64,000 nt of DNA from Nitrospirae bacterium UBA2233 (GTDB taxonomy: Bacteria > UBA2233): assembly GCA_002347965.1 (NCBI GenBank), contig DDYN01000031.1, positions 20,177 through 84,176 of the forward strand. Reading direction: 5' to 3'. The notes beneath the pieces were generated by a model that was given only the letters and a program-made list of their open reading frames with translations, was not told the origin of the DNA and did no database searches. Made by a program: the position numbers and the translations under genes. This document shows, piece by piece, positions 44,904 to 61,995 of this stretch (the stretch's first letter is position 1; the number at the start of each line of letters is the position of its first letter).

Positions 44904-44917
44904 TTTTTGCCTAAAAC

Positions 44918-46481: not shown

Positions 46482-47613
46482 ACAAAGCCTTCAGCGATTC
46501 GAACGTACGGTTCCAACTGAAACGATCAAGGACAAGCCTCCTTGCAAGCGAACCCAAGCGTTCGCGATCCATACCGAGAACTTTCGCAACGACATCGGCA
46601 AACGCGCCCGGAGAGGGGTCTGCAACGGGAAAGCTTGCTTGTCCCATGTCGGCACACAGAAACCCGAGGTTTTTTTGGAATACCACGGGCGTCCCGGAAG
46701 ACAGCGCTTCGAGCGCGGCCAAGCCGAACGTCTCGTAACGGCTTGGCATCACCAGCACGTCCACGCTCGCGTACAGCACGGAAAGCGTTTGTTTTGGCAG
46801 ATAGCCCAAGTACCGAACCGCTTGTGGGTATTCCCGCTGAAGCTCCAGGGCTTGGGGGCTCATAGGCCCGTCCCCCGCGATCAGGCAATTTGTAGCCATT
46901 CTTTCCCAAAGCATGCGCTGCATCTCGAGAAATAGCGGAAAACACTTGTCTTTACTAAGCCTGCCAACGTAAAGAACCGAGGGGAGCGAGGGGTCTAGCC
47001 CTAAGGCTTGGAGCAGTTGAGGGTTACGTTTTTCTGGGGCAAACAATGAGGTATCCACACCGAGGCTCACGAGCGTTGCGTTTTCGATTCCTAATCGCCT
47101 CAGCTTGTCTAATAGGGGTTGGCTAGCGGCAAGCGTGGCATCGAACCGGTTATAGAGGGCCTTTGTGTATTTAAGCGCGATCGTATACGGAAGGCTTGCA
47201 AGCCGCCATGTATTCCAATTCTGGGCAGATACCCGAAAATATGTATCCGAGAAATCGCTGTGGTAAAACCCGACGCATGGAACCTTCCGAGTCCTGGCGT
47301 AGTACAACGCGCTCCAGGGCAAAAGGTCCGGAGAGCCTACTTCAAGCACATCAGGCGCTTCTTTTCTCAAGATTCGAAGGCATGCGAGCGGGTTTAGAAT
47401 GAGCCGGTACTGCATGTTCCATGGAACGGGCATCCCGTGCACCCTGTAGATTTTCCTACCCGGCACCTCGAGGACCTCATTCCGTTTGTAAGGCACGATA
47501 AGCAGCTGCTTCCACGCGCCCGTCCTCACGCCATATTCGCCTTTGGCCTCAAGGTAGGTCTTGATCCCACCGCTCCTTTCCGAGTAGAACTGCGTAAGGT
47601 CGCAAACGTACAT
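46441..47613 (-). CDS. Glycosyltransferase family 4 (GT-B fold)
   Basis: 390 aa; C-terminal VGRLSKDKCFPLFLE... and the EX7E region YETFGLAALEALSSGTPVV. Confidence 0.8.
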   Translation of the reverse strand: MYVCDLTQFYSERSGGIKTYLEAKGEYGVRTGAWKQLLIVPYKRNEVLEVPGRKIYRVHGMPVPWNMQYRLILNPLACLRILRKEAPDVLEVGSPDLLPWSALYYARTRKVPCVGFYHSDFSDTYFRVSAQNWNTWRLASLPYTIALKYTKALYNRFDATLAASQPLLDKLRRLGIENATLVSLGVDTSLFAPEKRNPQLLQALGLDPSLPSVLYVGRLSKDKCFPLFLEMQRMLWERMATNCLIAGDGPMSPQALELQREYPQAVRYLGYLPKQTLSVLYASVDVLVMPSRYETFGLAALEALSSGTPVVFQKNLGFLCADMGQASFPVADPSPGAFADVVAKVLGMDRERLGSLARRLVLDRFSWNRTFESLKALYVALRDQRSLFGQ

Positions 47614-47685
47614 TTTCTGCGCTCCGGAGCGGTACGAGTGTTTTTTCCATTGTACGCGCGTTCCTCACGATTCGGCAAAGGGCTT

Positions 47686-50220
47686 TCAAGAAAGGCGCTT
47701 GAGGGCAAACGTCTCTCTTGCGTGCATTTGCCAAAATGCCTCAAACGCCTTGTCGAACGAACGGTTTTCCATGTAGCGCCTGGCCTCGATCATCATCTCC
47801 TGTCTTCTTGCTGGGCTCTCGAGTAGCTCTTCGATGGCCTTGACGAGCGCGAAGCTGCTCCCAGCCTTGAACACAAGGCCCGTCCTGCCTGCTTCAAGGT
47901 TCTCGGAGGGTCCGCCCTCATCGGCCACGACGACGGGGATACCGGAGGCTTGGGCTTCGAGGACGACGTTCCCAAACGTATCCGTCGAGGAGGGAAAGAC
48001 AAAAATATCGGCCGAAGCGTAAACGCTCGAGAGCTCTTCCCCTTCAAGCGGCCCTGTGAATGTAATGCCAGAACCTTCGTATTTTGCCTTCAGTGCCCCT
48101 AGATAAGGGCCATCTCCCACGACAACCAACTCGGCGGTCTTATGGCGCTCTTTGATAAAAAGGTAGGCATCGATCAGCAGGTCCAACCCCTTCTCTTTCG
48201 ATACTCTTCCCACGTACAGGAGCTTTGTTCCTCCGTTGTTCGAAAAATTTTTCCAGATATCTTGGTTGCGAAAGCGCGGATGAAAACGCTGAATGTCTAT
48301 CCCCCTCGGAAAAACCTTGATCTTATCCGGCGTAAAACCGTTTTGCACCAGTTGGTTCATCGTCGCCCTGGAGGGGACGAACACGATGTCCATCTGTTCG
48401 TAGTACCAGCGGATATATCGCCAGCTCATCTCCTCCATCGAAAAATCCCCCGTTAGGATCCGGACATACTGAGGGATGTCTGTGTGATAGATGCCGTTGA
48501 TCGGGATGTCCAAGAGCCTTGCAACCAACAGCCCGGCTAGTCCCATTGGGCCGGGCGTCGAAGAGATCACGGAGTCAAACCCCTCACGCTCGCAAAACTC
48601 CACGATGTCCAAGAAGGGCGGGACGTATAGCTTAATGCTCTCGTATTCCGGGATCGGGAATGTCAAGAGCGGAAGAAACTTGACGAATACGTCCTCTAGG
48701 TAGGCCTCAATTTTGGCGTTCTGCGGGCATGCCACGACTTTTAAGTCTTTGGCGCTCCTCTTGGCGGATCGTGCCATCTCGAGGATGGTCCTGGCTACGC
48801 CGTTGACGTCGAAGATGGTGTCCGAAAACCATACCCTCCTGTCTAAGGGTTCCCCGCGTAGGTCCTCTAGAAGGCCGAGCCCGTCTAGGACTTCACGAAT
48901 ACGCTTTTTGTCTTTGTTTTGATGGTGGTAGGAAAAAAAGTAAGGCATAAGGAACATTTGAACCATGGTAAGGGCGGAGAGGTGGTTAAAGTTGTCTAGA
49001 ATCTTGAAGGTTTTTAAGTTTTTTAAGAACTTCGAGACAAAGTTCAAAGTCATGTGCTGCGAGATGCCGGAAGCAAGCTTTAGGTAGTTGTCGTTTATCG
49101 CCTCCCACTTTGCCTCGTCCGTAGCCCAAAGGCCCGAAAGCTCTTCGCTATGCGTCAAAAAAGAGGCCCTTCGTCCAAGAATACGAAGGAGGGCTTGATC
49201 GCCCTTTGGGATGTCCTCTCTGGGCTCGTAGCGTTCGATGAGCCGTTTGACCTTTTTCGCGATCCCCGACTGGAGTGTGCCCTTGGCGCTGGACTTGGAG
49301 TTTTCTCCGTTGCTCCCCGACCCTTGGGAAATCTTGTCAAGCAACGAAAATAGCAAATCTTCCGGCTTTTTGGCCTCCTTGAGCACGTCCTTTGCTAAAA
49401 ACTGGTAAGCAATCGCGTATAAACTATGGGCAAGCCCCAGAGGCGAGCCGTACCGTCCTGCACCCCTGCTCTGGCCAGATCGAAGGAACGAAAGAAACTC
49501 TTCAGGCGTGGCAGCTTTGGGCACAACCGTGTAGGCATGGCCGACAAACAGGCCCCCGTGGTCGTCCGAACCCCCTGCCATACCTCGCCTTGTCTCAAGG
49601 ATAGGCTCGAGGTCCATCGGGTTTCGGTCGGCAAGCTCGAGCAGGAAGTCTCTCGTAAGGCACCCTAAAAGCCTCTCGAAGGCCATGCTCGTGATCGCTT
49701 TCCTCGAACCATTCACCGTCTCGAACGCAGGAAACAAGAGCAGCAACCTCTCGATATGGTAGCGCTTCAGGCGGTCGTTAATGGCATAGAAGGGGTGAGT
49801 CACGTAATGGACGACGTTCTTTTCGCGCAGATAAGCGACGAGCTCGTAGATATTGTCCCGCACGCTCGCAACATCCTCGTGAATCTTTTCGTCTATCCCT
49901 AGCACCTGGACGTGAATCTTGCAATCGTCCTCGGGAAAATACGTCGTGACTTCTTCGCCGACAATCACGTCCGGGTGGTGGGCGATTTCGAGCGCTCCGT
50001 CGATCACGTTATGGTCGGTGATCGTCACGAAGTCCATTCCTAGCGCCTTCTCCGTGGTGTACACCCAAGAAGGCTCGAGGTAGCACTCCTGGCAGCCTAG
50101 CCGCCTCAAGAGCCACTGCGTGGGCTTTGTGGAGTACTTTGAGTGAACGTGAAGATCGGCCACGGATACCAACGCCCGGTCTATATTCGAAGAAAGCGCT
50201 TTCCCTTGTTCGGTGTCCAT
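47686..50220 (-). CDS. PHP-domain phosphoesterase fused to a GT4 glycosyltransferase (844 aa)
   Basis: N-terminal PHP motifs (DLHVHSKYS..., TITDHN, ...GGSDDHG); C-terminal GT4 domain (LLYVGRVSKEKGLDLLIDAY, SSTDTFGNVVLEAQASGIPVV). Confidence 0.75.
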   Translation of the reverse strand: MDTEQGKALSSNIDRALVSVADLHVHSKYSTKPTQWLLRRLGCQECYLEPSWVYTTEKALGMDFVTITDHNVIDGALEIAHHPDVIVGEEVTTYFPEDDCKIHVQVLGIDEKIHEDVASVRDNIYELVAYLREKNVVHYVTHPFYAINDRLKRYHIERLLLLFPAFETVNGSRKAITSMAFERLLGCLTRDFLLELADRNPMDLEPILETRRGMAGGSDDHGGLFVGHAYTVVPKAATPEEFLSFLRSGQSRGAGRYGSPLGLAHSLYAIAYQFLAKDVLKEAKKPEDLLFSLLDKISQGSGSNGENSKSSAKGTLQSGIAKKVKRLIERYEPREDIPKGDQALLRILGRRASFLTHSEELSGLWATDEAKWEAINDNYLKLASGISQHMTLNFVSKFLKNLKTFKILDNFNHLSALTMVQMFLMPYFFSYHHQNKDKKRIREVLDGLGLLEDLRGEPLDRRVWFSDTIFDVNGVARTILEMARSAKRSAKDLKVVACPQNAKIEAYLEDVFVKFLPLLTFPIPEYESIKLYVPPFLDIVEFCEREGFDSVISSTPGPMGLAGLLVARLLDIPINGIYHTDIPQYVRILTGDFSMEEMSWRYIRWYYEQMDIVFVPSRATMNQLVQNGFTPDKIKVFPRGIDIQRFHPRFRNQDIWKNFSNNGGTKLLYVGRVSKEKGLDLLIDAYLFIKERHKTAELVVVGDGPYLGALKAKYEGSGITFTGPLEGEELSSVYASADIFVFPSSTDTFGNVVLEAQASGIPVVVADEGGPSENLEAGRTGLVFKAGSSFALVKAIEELLESPARRQEMMIEARRYMENRSFDKAFEAFWQMHARETFALKRLS

Positions 50221-50241
50221 ACCTTATTCCCTCTTAGGGTT

Positions 50242-51714
50242 CTACCTGGTTTGGCCTTGAAACAGCTCCTTCAACCCCTCGGCCCAGGCCAGCATAGCCT
50301 GAAAAACATCCAAGGAAGCCGATTCGAAATACAGCCTAATTTTATTCTCGGTGCCAGACGGGCGGATCAAAACCCAAGAGTCATCTTCAAAGTACCTCTT
50401 GTAGCCGTCCAGCGAGGCATCGTGCAGCATCGAGGCCCCTTGGAAGGCGCTTGGGAGGCTTTCGATCGTCGAGCGAAAGGCTTTCTCGGATCGGGCTTCC
50501 GCAACGGGGACGTCCAACCTTCGGAATGTAAGCTCTCCGTACCGAGACCTAAGCCTTAAGAGTTGTTCATGGAAAGGCCCTTCTTTGATCCGCATTTCAA
50601 GCGCAAACATGTCGGCCAAAAGCCCGTCTTTATCCGGGATGTTCGGGGAGTACGCAAAACCTCCACTCTCTTCGACGCCCAGAAGTCCCGAAGATTGCAG
50701 CATCCGCGACGCAATGTTTTTGAATCCTACGGGGCTCTCGATCACCTCGACGCCAAAGGCTCTTGCGATACGGTCAACCATGCTTGAGGTGGAAACGCTC
50801 TTGACGATGGTGCCCCTTTCCCCCCGCACACGGAGCAGGTAATCTACAATCAGCGCAATCAAATCGGTGTTATCAACATAAACCCCTTGATCGTCCATCA
50901 CCCCAAACCGGTCCCCGTCGCCGTCCGTTGCCAGACCAAGGAGCGCCCCTCTTTGGCGAACCTCGCAAGCCAGGCCACGAAGCGCCCTGGAAGAAGGGGC
51001 GGTTTCTTCAAGACCTCCAAAGTATGGGTCTGGCTGAGCATGCAACGGAAACGCTACCGCTCCCGCTTTGTTCAGCAGGCGTCCAAAGCATCGGGCACTG
51101 GCGCCGTAAAGGGAGTCGTATACGACGACGGGATTGGCTTTGCAAATTGCCCGCACATCTAGCAGCGAACACAGGTGCTCTACATAATTCTCGCTCGCGG
51201 ACACGCTCCGGAGCATCCCCTCGTTTTCGATCGGCTTAGGCACGGCGGCGTTTCTATCGCACAAGGCCTCAATTTCGCCCGTTAAAGAGCCGTCCGCAAG
51301 CCCCGTACACGTTGTAAGCTTGACGCCATGATAGTAAAACGGATTATGACTTGCCGTAACGTTGACCCCCAAGTCGTATTTGCCCTGAATGGTCGCAAAC
51401 GTCAACGCCGGGGTTGTGTTCGGATGAGCCTCAAAATCGACTGAAACCCCGGAGCGCACGAGCGTACAAGCGATCAATTCTGCAAACAACCTGGAAAAAA
51501 AGCGCGTATCGTACCCCAGACGAACAACGCGTTGGGCCTCCGAATCGCCCCGACTCAGGTAGGCGGCAATTGCGTTTGCAAGGGTTACAACCTTGGAAAG
51601 CGTAACTTCTCGGGCAAGTATGCCCCGCCAACCGGAGGTACCAAACCGGATTGGAAAATCGCTTTTGTCGAACGTCAGGTTCTCAAAAAGCCCTAAAAAT
51701 TGGATGATATCCAT
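50242..51714 (-). CDS. Phosphoglucomutase/phosphomannomutase family (alpha-D-phosphohexomutase); start taken at internal MDIIQF...
   Basis: FGTSGWRG N-terminus, active-site loop TASHNP, and metal-binding DGDGDR. Confidence 0.85.
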   Translation of the reverse strand: MDIIQFLGLFENLTFDKSDFPIRFGTSGWRGILAREVTLSKVVTLANAIAAYLSRGDSEAQRVVRLGYDTRFFSRLFAELIACTLVRSGVSVDFEAHPNTTPALTFATIQGKYDLGVNVTASHNPFYYHGVKLTTCTGLADGSLTGEIEALCDRNAAVPKPIENEGMLRSVSASENYVEHLCSLLDVRAICKANPVVVYDSLYGASARCFGRLLNKAGAVAFPLHAQPDPYFGGLEETAPSSRALRGLACEVRQRGALLGLATDGDGDRFGVMDDQGVYVDNTDLIALIVDYLLRVRGERGTIVKSVSTSSMVDRIARAFGVEVIESPVGFKNIASRMLQSSGLLGVEESGGFAYSPNIPDKDGLLADMFALEMRIKEGPFHEQLLRLRSRYGELTFRRLDVPVAEARSEKAFRSTIESLPSAFQGASMLHDASLDGYKRYFEDDSWVLIRPSGTENKIRLYFESASLDVFQAMLAWAEGLKELFQGQTR

Positions 51715-52775
51715 GATGCAAGCTGCTCCGGTGCGAACTTTCCTTTTGCTTGAAGCACCCTCACCCGACCGTTGAAATTTTTGAACAAAGCCAGGTCGGA
51801 TGCTTTCGGACAAGAACGGTCTACCGTCCCGACGACGGGAACCTTCAAGGTTTTACCAGCGAACGAAGACAGTTCTTCTTGCTCCAGCTGATCTATTTTG
51901 AAATCCTCCTTTGCATTGCGAGACCACTCCAAAAACACAACCCCCTTCAGCTCTCCCCAGGGCTTTGCAATGCCATGGCCGTACACTTCTTGTACGGGAA
52001 CGTCACGCTTCATCTCGAGGTTCCAGAGGCTATCTTGCCCTAAAGATGCGAGCTCTTTTAACTCCTTGTGACTCAAGAGCGTCCGGAGGCGGGGGTCCGA
52101 AAAGATCGTCCCAGGGTTCACCCTAGGGAGCTTTGGAAACCCGACGGCCTGCATGGATGACCCCGTATATCCTACGAGCACCCTATCGTTGGCCACGTAA
52201 CGGAACCCTTCGCCAAGGAGCCTGAGGAGCGTTGTCGTCTTGCCGCTCCCCGAGCTCGAGGCGATGAGAACAACGCCACCCTTTCTCGTAGCCGCGGCGC
52301 CTGCGTGGAACAGCAAGAACCCCGCCTCAAGCCAGGCAAGGCTCAACACGTCGTTCACAACATTGACCGCGGAATTCCAATCCGAAACGCCGGGCTCTTC
52401 AAGCCATACCGCTCGCCGCTCGCCGTTTACGATGTAGCGCAAGCCAGAGCGAACTTTCTTTATCACCAGGAACGACCCTACTTTCAGCAAGGCTTCTTTC
52501 GCCGAAATCGGCGCAAAGGAGAGCCCGTCGAGCCCTTCTGGGAACCTTCCCGCAAGCACCGCCTTGAACTGGAGGCTTGGTCCAAAAGGCATCCTCCCCT
52601 CTTCTACGAGGTAGGGGGCGTAGCGGTCCAGCAAGGAGGTTAGAGGCTTCGGGGTGGGTGCGCTGACAATCAACTCCTGCCCCATGAGGACAAGCGGAAA
52701 ACGATGGGTAGCCCTACGTTCCTGTTGCGCCAGAAAGGCCGCCAGAGAAGACTCAAGCGAGTCGTCGAAGGACAT
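51693..52775 (-). CDS. HprK C-terminal-domain-like P-loop kinase with an unknown ~190-aa N-domain (start uncertain: 52775, 52685 or the ORF-track 52910)
   Basis: LIASSSGSGKTTTLLRLLGEGFRYVANDRVLV matches the HprK GxSGxGKSE...LVADD core. Overlaps the ATP-grasp stop and the PGM start. Confidence 0.65.
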   Translation of the reverse strand: MSFDDSLESSLAAFLAQQERRATHRFPLVLMGQELIVSAPTPKPLTSLLDRYAPYLVEEGRMPFGPSLQFKAVLAGRFPEGLDGLSFAPISAKEALLKVGSFLVIKKVRSGLRYIVNGERRAVWLEEPGVSDWNSAVNVVNDVLSLAWLEAGFLLFHAGAAATRKGGVVLIASSSGSGKTTTLLRLLGEGFRYVANDRVLVGYTGSSMQAVGFPKLPRVNPGTIFSDPRLRTLLSHKELKELASLGQDSLWNLEMKRDVPVQEVYGHGIAKPWGELKGVVFLEWSRNAKEDFKIDQLEQEELSSFAGKTLKVPVVGTVDRSCPKASDLALFKNFNGRVRVLQAKGKFAPEQLASWISSNF

Positions 52776-53643
52776 AGCCGGCAAACAGTCGGGCGGCATC
52801 CAGCCCGTATGCTTCATGCAGCCCACGAAACCCGCCAAAGGCGCTGACTTCGTAGACCAAAAAACCGTCCGGCCCCTCGACGAGGTCCACTCCGGCATAA
52901 CTAAGGCCAAACACGCGCTCGGCCTGTTTTGCTATCTCAAAGGCCGACCCAGGAAGGTCGTAAGGCTCGTAATACCCGCCTTCTGCGGTGGTCGTTTTCC
53001 AGCTCCCCTCCTTCGCCACACGAGCGTAGGCTTTAAGGAACTCTCCGCCAAGAAACATCACCCCGATGTCCCTCATCCCCTTGGCAGGAATGAACTCTTG
53101 CGCATAAAAGAAAGGGCCGTGTGTTTGCTTCCAGGCCTCTAGCGCACCCTTTTCGGCTTCCGGCCTGCCCAAACCAACCCGGATCATTCCACGAGCCTTT
53201 GAGGTAAAAAGCGGCTTGATGACGACCTCTTGCACCTCCTTGAGAAAATTCAACACATCCTCGGCCCGCTCCGTGATCAGGGTTCTTGGCATGGGAACGC
53301 CCGCAAGGGCAAGTTGGAGCGTCATTCTCATACGATCAATCGCCGCCTCGATCGCTTCGGGAGGAGAAAACACGGGCGTTCCCAGGGATTGTATCGCTTT
53401 GAGCTGCGCTACGCGCTCTGTCAGCGTAATATCGGAGGAATCGCCCAGCTTCTTCACTACCACGGCATCGACGGATAGTGCATCCTCCAACCCGAGGCGG
53501 ACTTTAAGCGAAGGCAACGATGCCGCGATCGCATCGTAAGGGACCAAAAAAGCCTCGGCCCCCTCCTTGAGAAAGGCTTCTTTAAGCCTTTCGGAAGACC
53601 AAGCGCCTGGGATACCGACAACCGCTATTCGCTTTGAGGCCAT
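52753..53643 (-). CDS. ATP-grasp enzyme (RimK-like, small form)
   Basis: 296 aa; ...VIKPLFTSKARGM..., ...YAQEFI..., ...YAGVDLVEGPDGFLVYEVSAFGGF... consistent with an ATP-grasp nucleotide-binding core. Overlaps upstream and downstream genes by 19 and ~20 nt. Confidence 0.75.
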   Translation of the reverse strand: MASKRIAVVGIPGAWSSERLKEAFLKEGAEAFLVPYDAIAASLPSLKVRLGLEDALSVDAVVVKKLGDSSDITLTERVAQLKAIQSLGTPVFSPPEAIEAAIDRMRMTLQLALAGVPMPRTLITERAEDVLNFLKEVQEVVIKPLFTSKARGMIRVGLGRPEAEKGALEAWKQTHGPFFYAQEFIPAKGMRDIGVMFLGGEFLKAYARVAKEGSWKTTTAEGGYYEPYDLPGSAFEIAKQAERVFGLSYAGVDLVEGPDGFLVYEVSAFGGFRGLHEAYGLDAARLFAGYVLRRLA

Positions 53644-55229
53644 GCGATAAACCGCTCCAAGTGTAGAATGCCTAGTAGATAGAGCTTTTTTGCCAACTCC
53701 AGTTGGTTGACAACCCTGCTCGAAGTAATGAACACGCGTCCCAACGCAACCATGAGCCTTCGTTTGACATGGCGATCAGAGTAAGCGCTACCAAACGCTT
53801 CGGCAAACCTTTCGAGCGATTCATTCACAAAGACTAAGTCTTCTTTAAGGTAGGTAGAAAGCAGGGGGTTTCGAATGTTTGAAACGATGATCGTCGCGAT
53901 ATCCTGAATATAGTCCCCGTAGCCGGAGCGGTGCACATCGATGAACTTTACGCCGTCTGTTCTGCTGTCGTAAAACACGTTGTTGGAGTTAAAGTCTCCG
54001 TGAATCCAAACTTCAAACGGCGGGAAAACCTCCTCTTCTAGCAGGGCGGCTCTTTGAAGGAGTTCGCTCAATGAAGGGGCGGACTTGCCGCAAAAGGAAA
54101 CGGGAAACTTCCTGATCTCTTCGAGCTCCGGATAAAAGGCATGCACCTCTTTTAGTCTCTTGATCAATTGAGGAACATAGCGGGTCGAAGGCTCTGCTTT
54201 TCGGATTGTCGATTGCCATAGCATTCGAAGAACTTCGATAATCCTCTCGAGCGAGCGACGTTTTAGATCAAAGTCCCCGAAAAAGAGGATCTCTTCGAAA
54301 GTCTTGCCCTGGAGGTATTCCGTGACGAGGATCTCTCGGTCCCCAAAGTACTGCTCGACCGTTAGTTTAGGAACGACCCCAGGATAAACCCTCTGCCAAT
54401 CATCGATCTTCTGCGCCTCTTCCGAAATTTTACTCCGCTCGCCTTCTTTAAGCACAAGACGCCGATGGCCATCCTGCTCCACGAGGAAAACGCGCGCGCC
54501 GCTTTTCCCCCCCCAAAGCGCTTGCATCCCGGCTACCGACTGATTTTCTAACGTTTCCCGGATATGCAGCAATTGATGGACTTTTATCTTTTCTCCTAGA
54601 ATCGTGTATACTCCGAGCTCTCCCAAATTGGCAAGGACATCCCCCATGTTCTCGGCATATTTGAGGGCAAAGAGATAAGTGATCGGAAAACTCTCTTCAG
54701 TTAAGCCTACGCGACTCGCCTCTTCGAAAAGAGCGGTCACTCCTCGCTGGTAAATTTCATCCAGCCTCACCTCGAAAGCGCAGACATCCTGTGCAAGCTC
54801 GATATTTTTTTGAAAGAGCGCGTCTAGAGCCATCTTGAGCCCGGCATCGATGATACCTACAAGCTCATCAACGGGCACCCACGGGGGCATCGGGGAGTTG
54901 TCCTTGAGGTGAAGGGTTTGCTTTGCGATGTTCACCCCATAATCGGCCAGCTTCTCTAAGTTGGTCGAAACCCTCACGTATCCCCTAAGAGAGAGAACCT
55001 CGGGCTTGGGGAGCCTACCTTGCTCAATGAGATCAAAACAGCGGTCTACAATAAGGACGTTAAGGGCGTCGATCTGGTCGTCCTTCTCGATAACACCCTG
55101 GGCAAGCGTTTTATCCCTCCCCTTAAAGGCCCCGAAGGCCTCCGCCACGAGAGCTCCGACCATTCGGCCCATCTTGCCCAGCTCGTGCTGGATGCTTTCT
55201 GCATTCAGCCTTGCGTCTGCAATATCCAT
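53625..55229 (-). CDS. PhoU-domain protein fused to an aminoglycoside-phosphotransferase-like (PF01636-type) kinase domain
   Basis: N-terminal ~215 aa with two PhoU-like repeats (...STNLEKLADYGVNIAK..., ...ENMGDVLANLGE...). C-terminal domain with Brenner motif WIHGDFNSNNVFY and downstream FIDVHRSGYGD. Confidence 0.7.
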   Translation of the reverse strand: MDIADARLNAESIQHELGKMGRMVGALVAEAFGAFKGRDKTLAQGVIEKDDQIDALNVLIVDRCFDLIEQGRLPKPEVLSLRGYVRVSTNLEKLADYGVNIAKQTLHLKDNSPMPPWVPVDELVGIIDAGLKMALDALFQKNIELAQDVCAFEVRLDEIYQRGVTALFEEASRVGLTEESFPITYLFALKYAENMGDVLANLGELGVYTILGEKIKVHQLLHIRETLENQSVAGMQALWGGKSGARVFLVEQDGHRRLVLKEGERSKISEEAQKIDDWQRVYPGVVPKLTVEQYFGDREILVTEYLQGKTFEEILFFGDFDLKRRSLERIIEVLRMLWQSTIRKAEPSTRYVPQLIKRLKEVHAFYPELEEIRKFPVSFCGKSAPSLSELLQRAALLEEEVFPPFEVWIHGDFNSNNVFYDSRTDGVKFIDVHRSGYGDYIQDIATIIVSNIRNPLLSTYLKEDLVFVNESLERFAEAFGSAYSDRHVKRRLMVALGRVFITSSRVVNQLELAKKLYLLGILHLERFIAWPQSE

Positions 55230-55232
55230 GCC

Positions 55233-55538
55233 TCAAGGCTGGGCCTCATTCTCGACGGACTCCCGTTCGACCGTAATCAGCAGCGGCTCGGCGGCTAATT
55301 CAGCCTTTTTCTCCCAGGAAAGCTTCAGCACAAGCTTTGCTTTTCCTCCCTTCTTTTTTGCCTCTACATCCAGTTCGATCGCCCCTTCGGGGGTCAGGTA
55401 CATCTCTTCCACGCCGCTTGTCAGGCGTACGGCCCCATTCCTTAGGGCGCTTGCGAGGCTCTCCAGGTATTCGGCAACGACATACGGTTCGGCGAAAGTG
55501 CTAAACTCAAACTCTTCCTTCTGCCCTCTTTTTGCCAT
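55233..55538 (-). CDS. Small protein, paralog 1 of 3 (possible amphi-Trp domain)
   Basis: 101 aa; ...VAEYLESLASALRNGAVRL...ELDVEAKKKGGKAKLVLKLSWEKK. The conserved LxLKLSW strand is shared with paralog 2. A 3-nt gap separates it from the PhoU-kinase gene. Confidence 0.5.
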   Translation of the reverse strand: MAKRGQKEEFEFSTFAEPYVVAEYLESLASALRNGAVRLTSGVEEMYLTPEGAIELDVEAKKKGGKAKLVLKLSWEKKAELAAEPLLITVERESVENEAQP

Positions 55539-55596: not shown

Positions 55597-56124
55597 TCAA
55601 TGCCCAAGAACCCTAAAGCCTCTTTCTGGGCCGCTTAAAGCCTTGTAGATTTTTCCTTCCTTTTGGAGCTTTCCCTCTCCGATCAGCCGGAGCACGACAG
55701 GAGCGAGCCTTCTCCAGTTCTCTCCAAGGCCCTCACCCAACTCTATCAACGAGGCACCGTCAGGTTTTACGCGCAACAAATAATCCAGCACCCTTTCTTC
55801 CTGCAAATTACTTCCGACGGCTGAGGCAGGCTGAAATGCGTCCTCGACAGTGGTGCCGGACTCTTGGGGTCGAACATCTAGACCGACCAACATAGTAGCA
55901 TCTTTCCAGCTCAAAACAACTTTTATTTTTTCTCTATACTTGCTGGAGCTTGTAGGCCTGCGACTCGCCTTGATCCGCAACAGCGGGAGAGACGATCGAG
56001 CAAAACTGAGGTGTTGCACCCCGGCTCGGATCGTAAAACGCCCCTCTCGCACGCCGTCGGCAAGGAAGCTAAGCAGGTCGGCCACCCTTTCCTTGTCCAG
56101 TTTCAGCAGCTCCTTTATCGTCAA
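55597..56124 (-). CDS. Small protein, paralog 2 of 3 (same N-terminal ~85-aa domain plus a ~90-aa C-terminal extension, possibly winged-helix-like)
   Basis: 175 aa; ...VADLLSFLADGVREGRFTI...KYREKIKVVLSWKD aligns with paralogs 1 and 3. The C-terminus is LDYLLRVKPDGASLIELGEGLGENWRRLAPVVLRLIGEGKL. Confidence 0.45.
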   Translation of the reverse strand: MTIKELLKLDKERVADLLSFLADGVREGRFTIRAGVQHLSFARSSLPLLRIKASRRPTSSSKYREKIKVVLSWKDATMLVGLDVRPQESGTTVEDAFQPASAVGSNLQEERVLDYLLRVKPDGASLIELGEGLGENWRRLAPVVLRLIGEGKLQKEGKIYKALSGPERGFRVLGH

Positions 56125-56347
56125 TGTCCAAGGCCCTCCCCTTCAACCCCTCGACCTTGAGAGTAATACGGAAGCGATCCCCATCCTCTTTGAGCTCAAA
56201 CTCGAGCGCTACTGGACCGACAAGGAGCACGGGCTTGGAGGGCCCAAGCCCGCCTTCTACGACGAGCCTCCCCTTTGCAAACCCATACCCTAGGGTTCGA
56301 AGAAATTCCGCAGCTTCATCTCGGTTTAGCGTACGCTTAAAACGCAT
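56069..56347 (-). CDS. Small protein, paralog 3 of 3 (Trp replaced by Gly at the conserved position)
   Basis: 92 aa; ...AAEFLRTLGYGFAKGRLVV...ALEFELKEDGDRFRITLKVEG aligns with the other two. Overlaps paralog 2 by 56 nt in another frame. Confidence 0.4.
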   Translation of the reverse strand: MRFKRTLNRDEAAEFLRTLGYGFAKGRLVVEGGLGPSKPVLLVGPVALEFELKEDGDRFRITLKVEGLKGRALDIDDKGAAETGQGKGGRPA

Positions 56348-56375: not shown

Positions 56376-57155
56376 CTAACAGGCCAAACGGCCGGGAACC
56401 TCCAAGGGGATTTCATCGATTCCCCTTGCACGCTTCACGACCCTCTTGATCTTATGGCTCATGTACACCCTGAGCGCAGGGAATTTGCCGCAGTAATAGT
56501 TGGTCTTCCGGTCGTGGATGGCGTCAAACAGGTGCTCAAGGCCAAACCGCTCGTCCGGAACGAGGGTCGCTCTAACGGCCAATTGAAGCCAATGGTGGGC
56601 ATCCGACCCGCCTGTCACGGCAAGTTCGAGCTCAGAGGCACGCTGAAGGAGCTTAACCTCCAGCCCGTAATCCTTCCCGTTCACCTCCACGGCATCAAGA
56701 CGCTTGAGCAGCCTTTCGGGAAACTTTTCGAGGTTTTTTTCCCCTCTAAACATGTGCGCACCGATCAGCAACAACTCAAGCCCATCGCGGGCACCGAGCA
56801 ATTCCTCGAACGGCGGCTTGTAGCCCGACGCTGGGGGCATCGAAAGCCTCGCTGCAAGGATACGAACGTGTTCAACCGGGCCTATGGCCAAGATGTCCCC
56901 CCCCTCGGCTACGCTAACCTCCGCCCCAGGAAGAAACGCAAAATTCTTTCCGACTCGGTACACTCCATCCTTGTAAGGAAAACGAGACGAAAGGTAGCGG
57001 TATACGCTAAAAAAATCCGGCGCGTGCAAGTGCTCTGTAACCGCTATGCCTTGCAGGCCGACTACAGAAGCGGTCCTGATGTAACGATCGACGCGCTTCG
57101 GCTCGAACGTGAACGTTTTGGATAGCATCATATGGGTGTGCAGGTCTATGACCAT
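56376..57155 (-). CDS. PHP-family metal-dependent phosphoesterase (histidinol-phosphatase-like)
   Basis: 259 aa; MVIDLHTHMM..., ...AVTEHLH..., ...GGSDAHH... PHP His/Asp motifs. Confidence 0.75.
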   Translation of the reverse strand: MVIDLHTHMMLSKTFTFEPKRVDRYIRTASVVGLQGIAVTEHLHAPDFFSVYRYLSSRFPYKDGVYRVGKNFAFLPGAEVSVAEGGDILAIGPVEHVRILAARLSMPPASGYKPPFEELLGARDGLELLLIGAHMFRGEKNLEKFPERLLKRLDAVEVNGKDYGLEVKLLQRASELELAVTGGSDAHHWLQLAVRATLVPDERFGLEHLFDAIHDRKTNYYCGKFPALRVYMSHKIKRVVKRARGIDEIPLEVPGRLAC

Positions 57156-57248
57156 TTATTGCCTCCTGACGGCTAGTGTTTTACCAATCATGAGATTAGC
57201 GTACCACAGCCCAGGTTGCAGGTTTATGACGGAAACGTTACAGTTTTA

Positions 57249-59528
57249 TTACAAGGCATCGGCTTTCCACGAGGCGACAAAGCAGCTCGCAGGGTTTTTC
57301 TTGGCGACCTTTTTGAGTTTGGCCGCCTCCTCGCCCACCTCAAGATGCCCATTAAACACTCCAGGCTCAAGCAGAACGCCAGCCAAAGAGATGGCGATGA
57401 GGGGAAATTCCCGAACGTGCCCTTCTCTATCCTGGGACACGATGTATCCTCGGCTCCGGTCCTCTTCGGTGTAGAAGTTCACGATGGAGGCGTCGAAACG
57501 TTCGACAATTTCCATGCAGGCTTTTGCCGAGTTTTCTACAGGGAGGATAAAGATAAAGTCATCCCCTCCGACATGCCCCAAAAACCCGTCCTCGGCTTGA
57601 TCAATCGCGCTCTTGAGCGTAAAGGCCGTGTATTTGATTACGTCATCCCCATGGGTGAACCCATAACGGTCGTTGTAGGCCTTGAAGTTGTCGAGGTCCG
57701 CATAGACAACCACGTGCTCAAGACGCCCCTGAATCCTTCGGTTGATCTCGTCGTAAATCGGGATGTTTCCGGGTAGCCCCGTCAACGGGTTTGCGTACGT
57801 CGCGAACAAGATCTGGAGCTCGGAGGTCTTTCGGAATAGCTCGTGGACCGTGCCTAGCCCCGAATACTTCCCGGACGTCGTCACAAGAAACGGGTCGTAC
57901 ACACGAGAAGGCGGGCGTTCCAGGCAGGCCCTGGAAACACGCTCTAGAGAATCCGTTGCTTCGACGATAACGGGGTTGGGGTCCATTAGCCGCTCGATCG
58001 GCTTTTCGCAGTACAAGGCATACCCGAACTCACTCGAGAGCTTAAGGAACAAGGGTTCACGGACAACGAGGCCGACGGGACTTCCCGTTGGGTTGACGAC
58101 AGGCAGCGCCACCAGGTCTTCTTTCTCCTTGAACCTCTGAACCACCACCCTTACCTTTGTGTTTGGGAAAATTGGTTCGACAAAATATTTCAGTTCCTCG
58201 ATGACGCTTCCCGAGACGGGCCTTTCGCCGACTTCTACCTTGGAGAACAATTTATGGATATTAGTAAACGACTCCGAAAAACCAGCCACCGATTCGTTCG
58301 GCCTTCCCAAGAAATAGCCTTGCCCTAGGTCTACTCCAAGCTTGTAGACCTCTTTGAGCTCGTCAAAGGTCTCGATCCCCTCGGCAACAACGAGGATCCC
58401 TAAGGCGTGGGCCAAATCCACAAGCGAACGCACGAGGCGGAGCTTGATGTACGACTTGCCGAGGTCTTGAATAACTCCCCTGTCTATCTTGATGATATCC
58501 GGCGTTTGATGGACAAGGATGGGGATGAGGCTGATGCCGGCACCCACGTCGTCGATTGCCACGACAAACCCCTGACGCTTGTAATGGGCAATGGCCTCGA
58601 GCACGCCCTGTAGGCTAGGGAGCCTGACGTTTTCAGTAACCTCCACCACGAGCTGGTCGTAGGAAAGCCCATACCTCCGGGCAAGCGCTTTGGTAAGCCC
58701 AATTTCTCGGGAAGGCGCCAAGACCACTTCCGGATCAATGTTGACGGCAAGCCTTTTTTGGATTTTTTGCCTTGAGGCGTTGAAGAAGGCGCGTTCCCGC
58801 ATGGCTCCCTCGAGCAACGTCAGCTGGCTAGTCTCTTTGGCCGCTTCAATAAGCCGAATGATGCTTAAAAACGGCACCGAGGTGGTAGGGAAGGAGAGGC
58901 ATTCGTAGCCAAACAGCTCGGCCGTCTTGAGCGAATAGATCGGCTGGAAACGCGTAGAAATCAGCCCCCTTTGAACAATCTCCTGAATGCAGGCCTCAAT
59001 CTTGTAAGAGGTGTCGTAGCCCTTGTCAGCCCCCTTCCCTCCGTCGTTTAGCGTAGTGTTGAGGTCTTGGAAAATACGAAGAACCTGATAGTCCAAGGAA
59101 AGCTTGCAGTTCAACGCCGCTTCCAGCACGCCAACACGAATGTCCCCCCGCAAAGAGGCGGCATCTTCTATCCCAAAGGCCTGAAGGGAGGCGGGGTTCA
59201 GGAAAAACTCCCGAATTTTTGGTACCACGACTATTTTCTCGCTATGCTCAAGCGGCGCGTCGGGGATTAGGAGGAGCTCCCATGGGCCTATCACGCAGCC
59301 GGTCCCATCGATGCCCGCATATTCGGCCAGCGATTCCGCAAGGGTTCGCATCTGGTAAAGATCGGACTTAGGGGATGCGCTTGCCTGGCCATTGCCAAGA
59401 ATCTCCCGGAAGTTCACAGAAAACACACAAAACTTCTGACTTTCGGAAAGCAGGCGCTTCATGAACACGATCAGGGATTCTAGGTCGGGCAAGAGGCTAA
59501 GGCGTCTCGATTTTTCTCGTATAAACAC
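57249..59528 (-). CDS. c-di-GMP turnover protein: unknown N-domain, EAL, tandem CBS, degenerate GGDEF (GGDDF)
   Basis: EAL motifs (EVTENV, AIDDVGAG, IIKIDRGVI, VVAEGIETFDELKEV); a CBS-like region; C-terminal GGDEF fold with HVGGDDFIFILP. Confidence 0.8.
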   Translation of the reverse strand: MFIREKSRRLSLLPDLESLIVFMKRLLSESQKFCVFSVNFREILGNGQASASPKSDLYQMRTLAESLAEYAGIDGTGCVIGPWELLLIPDAPLEHSEKIVVVPKIREFFLNPASLQAFGIEDAASLRGDIRVGVLEAALNCKLSLDYQVLRIFQDLNTTLNDGGKGADKGYDTSYKIEACIQEIVQRGLISTRFQPIYSLKTAELFGYECLSFPTTSVPFLSIIRLIEAAKETSQLTLLEGAMRERAFFNASRQKIQKRLAVNIDPEVVLAPSREIGLTKALARRYGLSYDQLVVEVTENVRLPSLQGVLEAIAHYKRQGFVVAIDDVGAGISLIPILVHQTPDIIKIDRGVIQDLGKSYIKLRLVRSLVDLAHALGILVVAEGIETFDELKEVYKLGVDLGQGYFLGRPNESVAGFSESFTNIHKLFSKVEVGERPVSGSVIEELKYFVEPIFPNTKVRVVVQRFKEKEDLVALPVVNPTGSPVGLVVREPLFLKLSSEFGYALYCEKPIERLMDPNPVIVEATDSLERVSRACLERPPSRVYDPFLVTTSGKYSGLGTVHELFRKTSELQILFATYANPLTGLPGNIPIYDEINRRIQGRLEHVVVYADLDNFKAYNDRYGFTHGDDVIKYTAFTLKSAIDQAEDGFLGHVGGDDFIFILPVENSAKACMEIVERFDASIVNFYTEEDRSRGYIVSQDREGHVREFPLIAISLAGVLLEPGVFNGHLEVGEEAAKLKKVAKKNPASCFVASWKADAL

Positions 59529-59693: not shown

Positions 59694-61016
59694 TTACACG
59701 TCCCTTTCGGCGTCGAAGATTCGGGGGGTCGTCAAATCAACCCGCAACTCTCTTAGGAGTACCTCGCCGTTGGAACGCTCAAGAGTGCTCGTCGCGATAC
59801 CGACCTGCATGTCCGGGTTTGGCAAGGTCGGAACCATTCCTACCGGAAACTCCAGGATCCGAGAGGCCGGGTCGAACCGGAACTTTTGGAAGCCCGACCT
59901 CTGGAATGCTCGAAGGACCTCCATGGCATCCTTGCCGTATACCTTGGCTGAAACCAAGAAGTAGCTGTTCTCCGAGAAGGTGTGCGTTTTTGGGATTGGA
60001 CCGCCCGCATTCTGGCGAAACAGCTGGGCCGTGTGCTTGTTCTCGCCGGAGCAATAATGCACCCCAAGCTTAAGGCCCTCCTCAAGGGCATACTCCAGTA
60101 GATTCAGACAGGCCGCTTCGCTGCCCGCAATCGGCAAAGTGCCGGGGTACCAATAGTCGTATAGAACGGACCAAGGGGGATTTTTAATCAGGTATCCCCG
60201 CTCTTTATAGGCGCCGGGGTGAACGAGCGAACAAAGCATTTCGAGCAGGTTGATGCCGAATATCCCGATCTGGTTGAGCTTACTCAAGATGCCTTGCATC
60301 ACGCCTTCCGTACCGGGCTCTATGGGCATCTCGACCATCGTTACAAGGTGGTGCTCGTTGGCCGAAACAAGCGAATCAAATATGGTTTTTCCCTCGTAAA
60401 AATCCTCCATCTTGATGCTGAAACGAATCTCGTTCAGTCCTGCCTTTGAAAGCGCCCGAAGGATGGAAGAATCTACAAAATCCCCGTTGGTATAAAGCCT
60501 CGTGTAGGCCTCCGGAAAAAGCGTACGGGCGGTCTGAAAAAAATCGATCACTTTTTCAGGATGAAGCAGCGGCTCTCCTCCGCTAAGGCCTACAAACTGC
60601 AATCCTGGCGTTTTTTCTGCCAAAGCATAAAGGTCTGCTTTGGCATCCCTCTCATGCTGAAGGTAGTAGCCGTAATCCTTCATTGCATGGTTAAAACAAA
60701 AATAACAATCCCTGTTACACTGGAAGGAGATGAAAAACGTCCGGCTTCCTATGCCTTTCTCGCAAGCCCTGCATGCGGGCGAGAGACGGCCGACGTGAAT
60801 GCTCCTTCCTCCATTGAGAAAGATGGCCCCTCCTTGCTTGAGCCGTTCCAGCTGCTCTTTTGGCTGAACCGGGTCGGGTTTGGGAGCAAATTCAAACCCA
60901 AGCCGGCGAACCTGCCCGTAGAAATCTTCTTGGATTTGGAGGTACCCGGCGGCCTCCTCGCGAAGCTGCGGGTTCTTCGCCAAGGCCATCGAGTCTGCAT
61001 CCAAAGGAATGATCAT
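59694..61016 (-). CDS. Radical SAM protein of unknown function, with a ~95-aa N-terminal extension carrying CxxC and a ~150-aa C-terminal domain
   Basis: CNRDCYFC (CxxxCxxC) at residues ~99-106, a GGEP SAM-binding motif (LSGGEPLL), and an upstream CRAC pair. Confidence 0.75.
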   Translation of the reverse strand: MIIPLDADSMALAKNPQLREEAAGYLQIQEDFYGQVRRLGFEFAPKPDPVQPKEQLERLKQGGAIFLNGGRSIHVGRLSPACRACEKGIGSRTFFISFQCNRDCYFCFNHAMKDYGYYLQHERDAKADLYALAEKTPGLQFVGLSGGEPLLHPEKVIDFFQTARTLFPEAYTRLYTNGDFVDSSILRALSKAGLNEIRFSIKMEDFYEGKTIFDSLVSANEHHLVTMVEMPIEPGTEGVMQGILSKLNQIGIFGINLLEMLCSLVHPGAYKERGYLIKNPPWSVLYDYWYPGTLPIAGSEAACLNLLEYALEEGLKLGVHYCSGENKHTAQLFRQNAGGPIPKTHTFSENSYFLVSAKVYGKDAMEVLRAFQRSGFQKFRFDPASRILEFPVGMVPTLPNPDMQVGIATSTLERSNGEVLLRELRVDLTTPRIFDAERDV

Positions 61017-61037
61017 TGGCTTTTGAAGGAAACCTGA

Positions 61038-61463
61038 TTAGTCCTTTTCTTCGGACTTAAGCTCTTCTTCGGCCTTGGAAAGCTCTTCTTGGATCGTCTT
61101 CTTTCCCGCATCGATCGCATCCAGCAGTTCTTTTTTCCTGGTCTCCGCCAGCAACCTCCCGCGCTCGAACAACTCCGTCGATGCCCGAAGAATCCGGTCC
61201 AAGGCTTGTCTCGCCGATTCAGAAAAGCTAGAGCCCATTGCTTCGGCTTTGTCTTTCAGCCTTTCAGAAAAGCTAGAACCCATTGCTTCGGCTTTGTCTT
61301 TTAGCCTTCCTGCCAAATCCTTCGCCTTTTCCGCATACTCAAGCTCACGCCTTGAAGACAGAAGAAAGCCCGTCAAGGCGCCCATGCCCCACCCCACTAA
61401 GAACATCGCCACCATAGAAAGACCGCCGCGCTCACGATCCAAAGGCACTTCTTTTCTCTCCAT
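61038..61463 (-). CDS. YtxH-like membrane-anchored stress protein with an internal 15-aa duplication
   Basis: 141 aa; N-terminal TM (MVAMFLVGWGMGALTGFLL), then helical low-complexity K/E/A-rich sequence with RLKDKAEAMGSSFSE repeated twice. Confidence 0.55.
   Translation of the reverse strand: MERKEVPLDRERGGLSMVAMFLVGWGMGALTGFLLSSRRELEYAEKAKDLAGRLKDKAEAMGSSFSERLKDKAEAMGSSFSESARQALDRILRASTELFERGRLLAETRKKELLDAIDAGKKTIQEELSKAEEELKSEEKD
61218..61307. repeat. 2 x 45-bp tandem direct repeat, in-frame inside the YtxH-like gene
   Basis: ttcagaaaagctagaGcccattgcttcggctttgtctttCagcc followed by ttcagaaaagctagaAcccattgcttcggctttgtctttTagcc (2 mismatches). Confidence 0.8.
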
Positions 61464-61493
61464 TGCTGCCCCTCCCTTTGTTGTGTCTAAACC

Positions 61494-61913: not shown

Positions 61914-61995
61914 GGTCCCTCCTTCGTAGTTTAAAGCGAACCTGGTTCCATTATACTAGGAATTCCTGGCTGTATCTACGGCAGCCTGGTCGTCC

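Follow-up and report, generated by a model that had tools for sequence, protein, structure and literature searches.

The gene at positions 53625-55229 of the DNA analyzed here (the window: a stretch of 64,000 nucleotides from contig DDYN01000031.1 of Nitrospirae bacterium UBA2233) encodes a protein of 534 residues, read from an ATG start, in which a complete PhoU module and a kinase half with intact kinase residues are joined in one polypeptide. The assignment draws on the open reading frame (ORF) list, Pfam, an AlphaFold2 model and an alignment of 145 full-length members; this gene and every other feature of the window described below lie on the minus strand. The fusion is tightly co-encoded and co-inherited with amphi-Trp proteins, a glutamate-ligase-type ATP-grasp enzyme, a distant homolog of HPr kinase and a phosphoesterase, and this cassette, the GAK system, is repeatedly tied to pst, phoU, phoB and phn genes and carries a Pho-box-like array. 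With moderate confidence, we read the fusion as an active cytoplasmic kinase of the APH/choline-kinase fold that is regulated according to phosphate status by its PhoU domain, that is a core enzyme of the GAK system, and that is encoded in a PhoB-induced cassette.

The PhoU module spans residues 1-225 (54555-55229) and is supported by model TIGR02135, profile matches in the PDB, Foldseek and motif conservation. The original prediction, which was made from the letters of the window, had recognized two PhoU-type repeats in the N-terminal ~215 residues, and Pfam, structure prediction and residue conservation all agree with it. The Pfam PhoU family (PF01895) scores 92.5 bits in two stretches across residues ~18-215 (cut-off 23.5), and the NCBIfam model TIGR02135 covers the N-terminal half end to end (model positions 8-211 of 212) at 96.7 bits; this lies below the equivalog cut-off of 130.25 bits, so the protein does not qualify as a genuine PhoU ortholog. 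Matches to PhoU structures in the PDB reach E ~1e-13 with the single sequence and 1e-37 with the family profile. We built the AlphaFold2 model with nine family members as input (mean predicted local distance difference test score, pLDDT, 86.9), and in it the module forms two three-helix bundles, with helices at residues 2-37, 40-69, 75-105, 120-140, 143-174 and 183-211. Foldseek superimposes these first six helices on the solved PhoU structures 4q25 and 1t72 with template-modelling (TM) scores of 0.90-0.92 and root-mean-square deviations of 1.6-1.9 Å. The window protein carries the ExxxD motifs E92/D96, E153/D157 and E193/D197, which 84-88% of the 145 members have preserved, and E204, which is kept in 98%. 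The peptides on which the prediction had been based (VSTNLEKLADYGVNIAK, WIHGDFNSNNVFY and FIDVHRSGYGD) are all found in the translation, and the genuine PhoU encoded at 44238-44903 carries ITTDLERIGDLLVNIGE and is 28% identical to the N-terminal half of the fusion over 205 residues (E = 2e-24).

Residues 226-534 (53628-54554) make up the APH/choline-kinase-like domain, which is identified by Pfam APH, NCBIfam NF033068, Foldseek and residue conservation. The Pfam family (PF01636) scores 53.3 bits over residues 243-460 (cut-off 23.2), with weaker overlapping Pfam matches to EcKL and to TCAD9 (26.7 bits, below the cut-off of 40). The landmarks of a working kinase are in place: a G-loop at S243-G244, K261 (54447-54449), E271, the catalytic loop H410-G-D-F-N-S-N-N417 (53979-54002), and the metal-binding D431 (53937-53939). 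Throughout the alignment, in which the median identity to the window protein is 27%, S243-G244, K261, E271, H410-G-D412-x-N414..N417 and D431 are 99-100% conserved. The catalytic Asp and Lys are therefore present alongside a PhoU-like N-terminal domain, and the predicted APH-like, catalytically intact kinase is borne out by the hidden Markov models (HMMs), structure prediction and residue conservation together. A C-lobe set specific to the fusion family (R453, D485, R491, R498, S503 and R505) is likewise 99-100% conserved. Foldseek matches the kinase half to APH(3')-Ia and -IIa, ethanolamine and choline kinases, macrolide phosphotransferases and an FN3K homolog at E values of 1e-8 to 1e-5. Because the TM-scores are merely 0.5-0.6, and because the family profile matches PDB kinases just around the catalytic loop (1e-3), we consider the kinase half to be a very divergent member of this fold. 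The APH(3') model NF033068 scores 60.9 bits, far under its cut-off of 205, and the subfamily models score below 25 bits (curated NCBIfam cut-offs range from 205 to 625). We considered an invariant arginine cluster as a sign of an anionic substrate and did not use it; R434, D439 and D443 fall within the stretch I-D-V-H-R-S-G-x-x-D-x-x-x-D-I-A, which resembles a general APH(3') motif.

The original prediction regarded this architecture as unusual, and in that respect it needs revision, since the fusion is not rare. A word-indexed search returned 8 homologs, all of them full length with both domains and 32-95% identical to the query. An exhaustive profile search of 1.84 billion cluster representatives (clustered at 50% identity) identified at least 150 full-length members at E <= 1e-85 and 496 matches at E <= 1e-30, and a scan of one genome per species gave 102 confirmed matches, from which 80 loci were kept. 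These loci come from Desulfobacterota, Nitrospirota, Methylomirabilota/Rokubacteria, Nitrospinota, Spirochaetia, Actinomycetota, Moorellales, Dehalococcoidia and others; one, 95% identical to the window protein, is from a Nitrospirae metagenome-assembled genome (WOZJ01000018.1), and the Desulfobacterota among them include the named genomes of Desulfocicer vacuolatum DSM 3385 and Desulfamplus magnetovallimortis. Public records carry the name "PhoU domain-containing protein", and IMG uses [quoted passage not shown]; from such names it is evident that both domains were already visible to automated annotation.

The genes that adjoin the fusion match the NCBIfam/TIGRFAMs "GAK system" models TIGR04354, TIGR04355 and TIGR04356. 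The amphi-Trp gene aT1 (55233-55538, 101 residues) lies 3 bp upstream of the fusion and scores 59.1 bits against TIGR04354 (cut-off 31), as compared with 40.3 bits for its paralog aT3 (56069-56347, 92 residues), so that GAK membership by an adjacent amphi-Trp gene is established above the cut-off; aT1 is a candidate partner or substrate of the kinase. Between them is aT2 (55597-56124, 175 residues), a paralog with an extra C-terminal region that scores just under the cut-off at 29.3 bits and matches Pfam Amphi-Trp at 23.3 bits. The first gene of the cassette encodes a PHP-family phosphoesterase (56376-57155; Pfam PHP_C, 23.3 bits). Downstream, the gene for a RimK/MptN-type ATP-grasp ligase (52753-53643; TIGR04356 277.3 bits, Pfam RimK 68.7 bits) overlaps the 3' end of the fusion by 19 bp, and is followed by that for a P-loop protein resembling HprK-related kinase B (51693-52772; TIGR04355 135.2 bits), whose ORF reaches 52910 with a likely start near 52772. 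In order of transcription, the string reads PHP, three amphi-Trp genes, fusion, ATP-grasp, HprK-like, PGM/PMM, PHP-GT4, GT4, DUF2334, PstB, PhoU, NadE and LeuRS, with all gaps at or below 72 bp.

Homologs at 32-50% identity have the same core on their contigs. Among 86 fusion loci, an ATP-grasp gene was present in 82, an amphi-Trp gene in 76 and an HprK-related kinase B gene in 62; short contigs account for many of the absences. The order amphi-Trp, fusion, ATP-grasp, HprK-related kinase B is nearly invariant and on a single strand, with median gaps of 5, 19 and -4 bp, and in 70 loci the gene immediately preceding the fusion encodes an amphi-Trp protein. We also carried out the reverse test, a metagenome scan seeded with HprK-related kinase B: of the loci with enough upstream sequence (n = 43), 39 had a PhoU-plus-kinase ORF upstream on the same strand, and one more had a frameshifted version. 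Because this test recovered the fusion in 39-40 of 43 loci, we regard it as a core GAK gene, even though neither NCBIfam nor Pfam holds a family model for it. The original prediction had placed the gene in the context of a pstB-phoU pair in the same gene string; that pair is real and the string is co-directional, but the key context is provided by the amphi-Trp, RimK-type ATP-grasp and HprK-related kinase B neighbors.

The cassette occurs in two arrangements. Type A, found in Rokubacteria/Methylomirabilota and in the Nitrospirota lineage of the window, has two or three amphi-Trp genes and opens with the PHP gene in all loci. Type B, found in Desulfobacterota, Spirochaetia, Nitrospinota, Actinomycetota and others, consists of genes for an ArsC/low-molecular-weight (LMW)-phosphatase-like protein, XXXCH, a 388-residue protein, amphi-Trp, the fusion, ATP-grasp, HprK-related kinase B, a CofD-like protein and an additional amphi-Trp protein whose tail is disordered. 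All five NCBIfam GAK cut-offs are exceeded in type-B loci; in locus L047, for example, the ATP-grasp scores 437 bits and HprK-related kinase B 525.6 bits. A phosphoesterase partner thus recurs in three forms, as PHP in type A, as the ArsC/LMW-phosphatase-like protein in type B, and as an N-terminal calcineurin-like phosphoesterase (Metallophos) domain in P0089, a metagenomic triple fusion of 1009 residues in which that domain precedes PhoU and APH. This last protein, together with the PHP and LMW-phosphatase genes, suggests a cycle of kinase and phosphatase acting on a shared substrate.

Several genomes carry two GAK loci: Desulfamplus magnetovallimortis (L069 and L080), a Desulfamplus sp. (L063 and L073), a Desulfovibrio sp. 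(L052 and L071), and the genome with L098 and L107, in which L107, the second copy, has no PhoU-kinase. The 388-residue protein of type B, encoded at L047:6189-7355 and in 55 other loci, has a mean column identity of 56% with invariant HWHPE, PHPE, W-N-P and GDD-H motifs; it matched nothing in Pfam, NCBIfam, PADLOC or the PDB, and probably represents an unclassified family of metal-dependent enzymes. Its HWHPE, PHPE and GDDTH motifs had hinted at a divergent equivalent of the type-A PHP protein, a candidate that we rejected (hhalign probability 0.1%, and no PDB relative of the profile).

Genes of phosphate uptake accompany the cassette in the window and beyond it. The pstB gene (44918-45691; TIGR00972 396 bits, cut-off 343) and the genuine phoU (44238-44903; TIGR02135 216 bits, cut-off 130) form a pair at 44238-45691, 9 kb from the fusion. 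The original description of this pstB as stand-alone is correct, because pstS, pstC and pstA are absent from the whole 64 kb. An orphan pstB-phoU pair also follows the cassette in L005, and such a pair may serve the PhoU-kinase instead of a transporter, or pstSCA may be encoded elsewhere in the genome. In Rokubacteria, the cassette is directly upstream of a phoB-like response regulator gene and then pstSCAB-phoU; in L001, it is directly downstream of phnGHIJ and the remaining carbon-phosphorus lyase genes and precedes the phoB-like regulator and pstSCAB-phoU; and several Desulfobacterales have the opposite arrangement, in which pstSCAB-phoU precedes the cassette. Among loci with at least 15 kb of sequence and flanks of +-8 kb, 17 of 44 species-representative ones had a pst or phoU gene no farther than 8 kb away (10/11 of type A and 6/31 of type B); in the metagenome set, which had been seeded independently, such a gene was within 7 kb in 7 of 28 loci. 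For a genome of a few Mb that has one pst operon, chance linkage would by a rough estimate be well under 1%. It is quite likely, in our view, that the cassette is linked to phosphate homeostasis. The tie between this kinase and phosphate through PhoU, although an inference, is considerably strengthened by the fact that a conserved cassette adjoins pstSCAB-phoU, phoB-like and phn genes and by the repeat array that precedes it.

That array (57215-57253) reads TGTAAT-aaaac-TGTAAC-gtttc-CGTCAT-aaacc-TGCAAC, four units with an 11-bp period, and was identified both by a position weight matrix (PWM) and by a generic array test. It is located inside the 93-bp gap between an EAL-GGDEF gene and the PHP gene, directly ahead of the gene that opens the cassette; a -10-like TACGCT and an AGGAGG ribosome-binding site come after it. 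A Pho box consists of direct repeats with an 11-bp period in a promoter, and the four-unit array has this form. We trained the PWM solely on six Rokubacteria arrays from phoB-like promoters, and held-out sites were recovered at 38-53 bits; in both strands of the window, the best match is this array, at 17.4 bits as compared with 7.8 for the next. By the generic test (at least three of four GT[ACT]A[CT] units at an 11-bp period), the array is alone in the 64 kb, while shuffled sequences average 0.08. It is conserved in L007, and in L005, which has 50% protein identity and an AT-richer genome, we noted by eye TGTAAC-aaaaa-CTTAAC-ttaat-TGTCAT-cattt-TGCAAT at the equivalent place.

The Rokubacteria phoB-like genes are themselves preceded by four direct repeats with 11-bp spacing (e.g., CTGTCAC..ATTTAC..CGTCAT..TGTAAC), and the PWM trained on them also matches pstS promoters. 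In 10 of 11 Rokubacteria loci, the region upstream of PHP is among the top four of ~35,000 positions. No match was obtained with the full-length Rokubacteria PWM in type-B loci or in L005. With a PWM of the units alone, 15 of 49 type-B loci had their best match no more than 250 bp upstream of a GAK or pst gene; examples include three TGTCAC repeats in L023 and "CTAACA" arrays common to the promoters of pstS and u195/u388. Scans for promoter and terminator consensus sequences across the operon gave no more than expected from shuffles. Taking these observations together, we think that the cassette is probably controlled by PhoB and induced when phosphate is limiting. The same type of array also stands before a gene for a ~245-residue ABC ATPase just upstream of the cassette in Rokubacteria (L008:3895, L010:5128, L012:5157, L018:5708 and L064:3766), which makes the whole Rokubacteria neighborhood look like a phosphate-starvation island.

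How the parts might work together can be sketched as follows. PhoB would turn the operon on when phosphate is scarce. The PhoU domain would read phosphate status, either at its ExxxD metal/anion sites or by docking on the operon-encoded PstB, and would then allosterically set the activity of the attached kinase. The kinase would use ATP to phosphorylate a hydroxyl of the co-translated amphi-Trp protein itself or of a group added to that protein by the ATP-grasp enzyme, and the PHP phosphoesterase would remove the mark. Free PhoU binds metals, PstB and PhoR, and by analogy the PhoU domain may well be the regulatory input of the kinase, a step for which we see about equal reason for belief and doubt. 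The weakest step is the substrate; it is possible, but by no means the expectation, that the amphi-Trp protein or a group attached to it is what the kinase modifies.

The original prediction had guessed that the small paralogs, now recognized as amphi-Trp proteins, could be substrates of the kinase, which is reasonable but unproven. In Dissulfuribacter thermophilus, one of the amphi-Trp proteins of the cassette is reported to rank within the top 20 proteins by abundance (PMC13490349). In our alignment of these proteins, F10, K63 and W75 are the sole near-invariant residues. The AlphaFold2 model of aT1 shows a beta-alpha-beta4 core plus a disordered tail (pLDDT 71); it has no Foldseek match at E < 0.1, and the amphi-Trp profile has chance-level matches in the PDB (best E = 0.006). 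Following the Trp there is an "[LI]-x-I-S-S" element, which is the C-terminus of many short copies and continues in long ones with "EP" and then a disordered tail; in Desulfobacterota, many copies terminate in "...I-[GS]-S", and the short copies adjacent to the kinase often stop exactly there. We consider this element a candidate acceptor site, though not a universal one. We also looked for acidic C-terminal acceptor tails of the RimK/LysW type and rejected this possibility, since such tails are not present and the C-termini are variable.

Two further features of the amphi-Trp proteins are recorded here. In type B, the distal copy, after the CofD-like gene, has the amphi-Trp core, a conserved [LI]-x-I-S-S-x-E-P strand and a disordered tail of 40-140 residues rich in acidic residues, Pro and Lys (L021, L023, L028, L030, L033, L035, L049, L053, L067, L074 and L077). 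The aT2 protein of the window and its counterpart at L005:7226-7843 (175-205 residues) have an extra C-terminal ~70 residues (…LIELGEGLGENWRRLAPVVLRLIGEGKLQKEGKIYKAL…) that appear winged-helix-like by eye and have no HMM hit.

A number of observations weigh against our reading. There is no invariant Ser, Thr or Tyr in the aligned amphi-Trp proteins, and the closest structural relatives of the kinase found by Foldseek act mainly on small molecules. Within the PhoU module, the ExxxD motifs are conserved less strictly than the kinase residues. No pst or phoU gene is found within 8 kb in 25 of 31 type-B loci, the Pho-box model rests on inferred operators rather than mapped ones, and the units-only evidence in type B is confounded by AT-rich intergenic composition. 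Three GAK-like loci in the set seeded with HprK-related kinase B (n = 43) are without the fusion. The ATP-grasp and HprK-related kinase B proteins of the window score under the NCBIfam cut-offs (277.3 vs 300 and 135.2 vs 200, respectively), and homologs of the CofD-like and XXXCH proteins, as well as of the 388-residue protein, are absent from the 64 kb, for which reason we treat the window cassette as a divergent variant.

Because the substrate is the weakest step of our reading and the relatives of the kinase are mostly small-molecule enzymes, the main rival is a small-molecule pathway, which we judge less likely. The cassette would then encode a biosynthesis in which the kinase half phosphorylates a small molecule (for instance a sugar, polyol or cofactor-like intermediate) and PhoU reports the state of the phosphate pool back to it; glutamate would be attached by the ATP-grasp, as happens in the tails of F420 and methanopterin, the CofD-like or GT4/PGM enzymes would add a phospho- or glycosyl group, and the amphi-Trp proteins would be carriers, scaffolds or unrelated. 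APH(3'), the choline/ethanolamine kinases, the macrolide phosphotransferases and EcKL, its nearest relatives, are indeed small-molecule kinases, and the ATP-grasp is nearest to MptN, CofF, RimK and LysX. A gene of the CofD-like (2-phospho-L-lactate transferase) family is found in type-B cassettes, PGM/PMM is found in the window, L005 and L056, and GT4 genes in the window and L005; the lack of an invariant hydroxyl residue in the amphi-Trp proteins also speaks for this pathway. Yet it is the amphi-Trp gene, at a median gap of 5 bp, that is the most tightly coupled neighbor of the kinase, and the accessory enzymes (CofD-like versus PGM/GT4/PHP) vary by lineage whereas amphi-Trp, fusion, ATP-grasp and HprK-related kinase B are constant. 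HprK-type enzymes and RimK act on proteins, and the fold matches include FN3K, whose targets are protein-bound groups.

The remaining explanations fare less well. The fusion could in essence be a paralog of PhoU with the Pst transporter or PhoR as its regulatory target, the other half being a scaffold or pseudokinase, or its PhoU half could be a helical dimerization or metal-binding domain unrelated to phosphate. PhoU-like helical bundles do occur in several unrelated fusions, the TIGR02135 score is under the cut-off (96.7 vs 130), and the ExxxD motifs are not invariant; these possibilities are nonetheless improbable, since every catalytic residue is 99-100% conserved at a median identity of 27%, which strongly disfavors a pseudokinase, a genuine PhoU is already encoded in the window, and the recurrent linkage to pst, phoU, phoB and phn together with the Pho-box arrays speaks against a domain unrelated to phosphate. 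A role in aminoglycoside or macrolide resistance, or in an anti-phage or conflict system, might be read from the best NCBIfam match of the kinase (APH(3'), 60.9 bits), from the weak TCAD9 match (26.7 vs 40 bits) and from GT4-conflict matches on the neighboring glycosyltransferases. We think it very improbable: all resistance equivalog models are far under their cut-offs (60.9 vs 205, others below 25 bits), no PADLOC model matches the fusion, amphi-Trp, ATP-grasp, PHP, 388-residue or CofD-like proteins, and the locus is chromosomal, sits among housekeeping genes with unremarkable GC content, and is conserved with pst genes across phyla. Lastly, an artefact of frameshift, assembly join or two-gene read-through is effectively excluded, because catalytic residues and motifs are conserved across the 145 members, the same single ORF is found in 144 full-length representatives from independent assemblies and phyla (named genomes among them being Desulfocicer vacuolatum DSM 3385 and Desulfamplus magnetovallimortis), and the AlphaFold2 model is continuous and confident at the junction; the reverse situation, in which apparent frameshifts split the fusion, occurs in L081, L083 and L161.

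The rest of the gene string is lineage-specific. Downstream of HprK-related kinase B, Pfam identifies PGM/PMM (50242-51813), an 844-residue PHP-GT4 fusion (47686-50220), GT4 (46441-47613) and DUF2334 (45705-46481), a set that occupies 45705-51813 and recurs in L005 and L007. Standing in the same string behind the Pho-box-like array, it bears a possible resemblance to the phosphoesterase-plus-glycosyltransferase (PlcP-Agt-type) systems that remodel lipids or the envelope and are induced by phosphate starvation. Directly upstream of the window cassette is a gene for an EAL-CBS-GGDEF protein of cyclic di-GMP turnover (57249-59528), and EAL/GGDEF genes adjoin GAK cassettes in unrelated lineages (L005, L046, L057, L061, L075, L084 and L098). 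Upstream of this gene, at 59694-62304, are a radical SAM enzyme and three small proteins (sub-threshold DUF948, YtxH-like and DUF5411), a set that is kept in L005.

The architecture is already known from public databases, and the cassette has its TIGRFAMs name. We found no publication on the fusion protein or on the GAK system, nor any earlier proposal that ties GAK to the Pho regulon. The GAK cassette, roughly four to nine genes depending on lineage, bears placeholder names only, and it is carried by sulfate reducers, Nitrospirota, Methylomirabilota, Nitrospinota and other environmentally important anaerobes; if the link to phosphate is true, it gives the cassette a physiological setting, that of phosphate limitation. 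How PhoU senses and relays phosphate status is a decades-old question, partly because canonical PhoU has no measurable activity of its own. In the fusion, PhoU is joined covalently to an intact kinase, so that the response of kinase activity to inorganic phosphate (Pi), metals or PstB offers a direct biochemical readout, and the question becomes testable in vitro. The interest of the fusion, then, is that it offers a PhoU module with a measurable enzymatic output as well as a physiological handle on a widespread, uncharacterized cassette. We would go further only speculatively: it is conceivable, though we consider it unlikely, that GAK is a widespread branch of the phosphate-starvation response, in which a PhoU domain, possibly docked on PstB as free PhoU is, directly controls the kinase attached to it, and this kinase, with the help of ATP-grasp, HprK-related kinase B and a phosphoesterase, places a modification containing phosphate on abundant amphi-Trp proteins and takes it off again. 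In the fusion, the bacterial phosphate sensor may have a second output, in the form of a kinase. If so, the PstB/PhoU sensor would have an output other than PhoR, and nature would have supplied a "PhoU-with-a-readout" able to show what the PhoU fold senses.

Comparison with characterized systems helps to place the protein. Like PhoU of E. coli and its solved homologs (1T72, 4Q25, 1XWM, 1SUM and 2I0M), the N-terminal 225 residues have the full two-repeat, six-helix fold with ExxxD motifs, and the gene is in an operon with pstB; unlike them, the fusion carries a 300-residue kinase, scores below the TIGR02135 cut-off, and is placed inside a GAK cassette rather than at the end of pstSCAB. In other PhoU-domain fusions, such as Na/Pi-cotransporter-PhoU and the archaeal AbrB/SpoVT-PhoU regulators, PhoU is attached to an output domain of phosphate homeostasis; here the output is a kinase, and we found no characterized example of this architecture. 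With the APH/choline-kinase/FN3K group (PF01636; APH(3')-Ia, 4FEU; APH(3')-IIa, 1ND4) the fusion shares the Brenner HGDxxxxN motif, the metal-binding Asp, the beta3 Lys, the alphaC Glu and the Gly-rich loop, but the similarity is limited to the catalytic core, and the fusion has its own C-lobe, an N-terminal PhoU module and no resistance context. As for the GAK system as defined by TIGR04354 (amphi-Trp), TIGR04355 (HprK-related kinase B), TIGR04356 (ATP-grasp), TIGR04357 (CofD-like) and TIGR04358 (XXXCH), the fusion lies between the amphi-Trp and ATP-grasp genes in essentially every locus; the window cassette differs in being of type A, with sub-threshold ATP-grasp and HprK-related kinase B, with PHP instead of the CofD-like, XXXCH and 388-residue proteins, and with PGM/GT4 genes appended. 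HPr kinase/phosphorylase has a P-loop fold, as opposed to the protein-kinase-like fold of the fusion, and senses Pi at its active site with no PhoU domain. The likeness to it is one of functional analogy, in that the fusion would be a kinase set by Pi and acting on a small (~90-residue) protein, and a distant HprK homolog is encoded two genes downstream.

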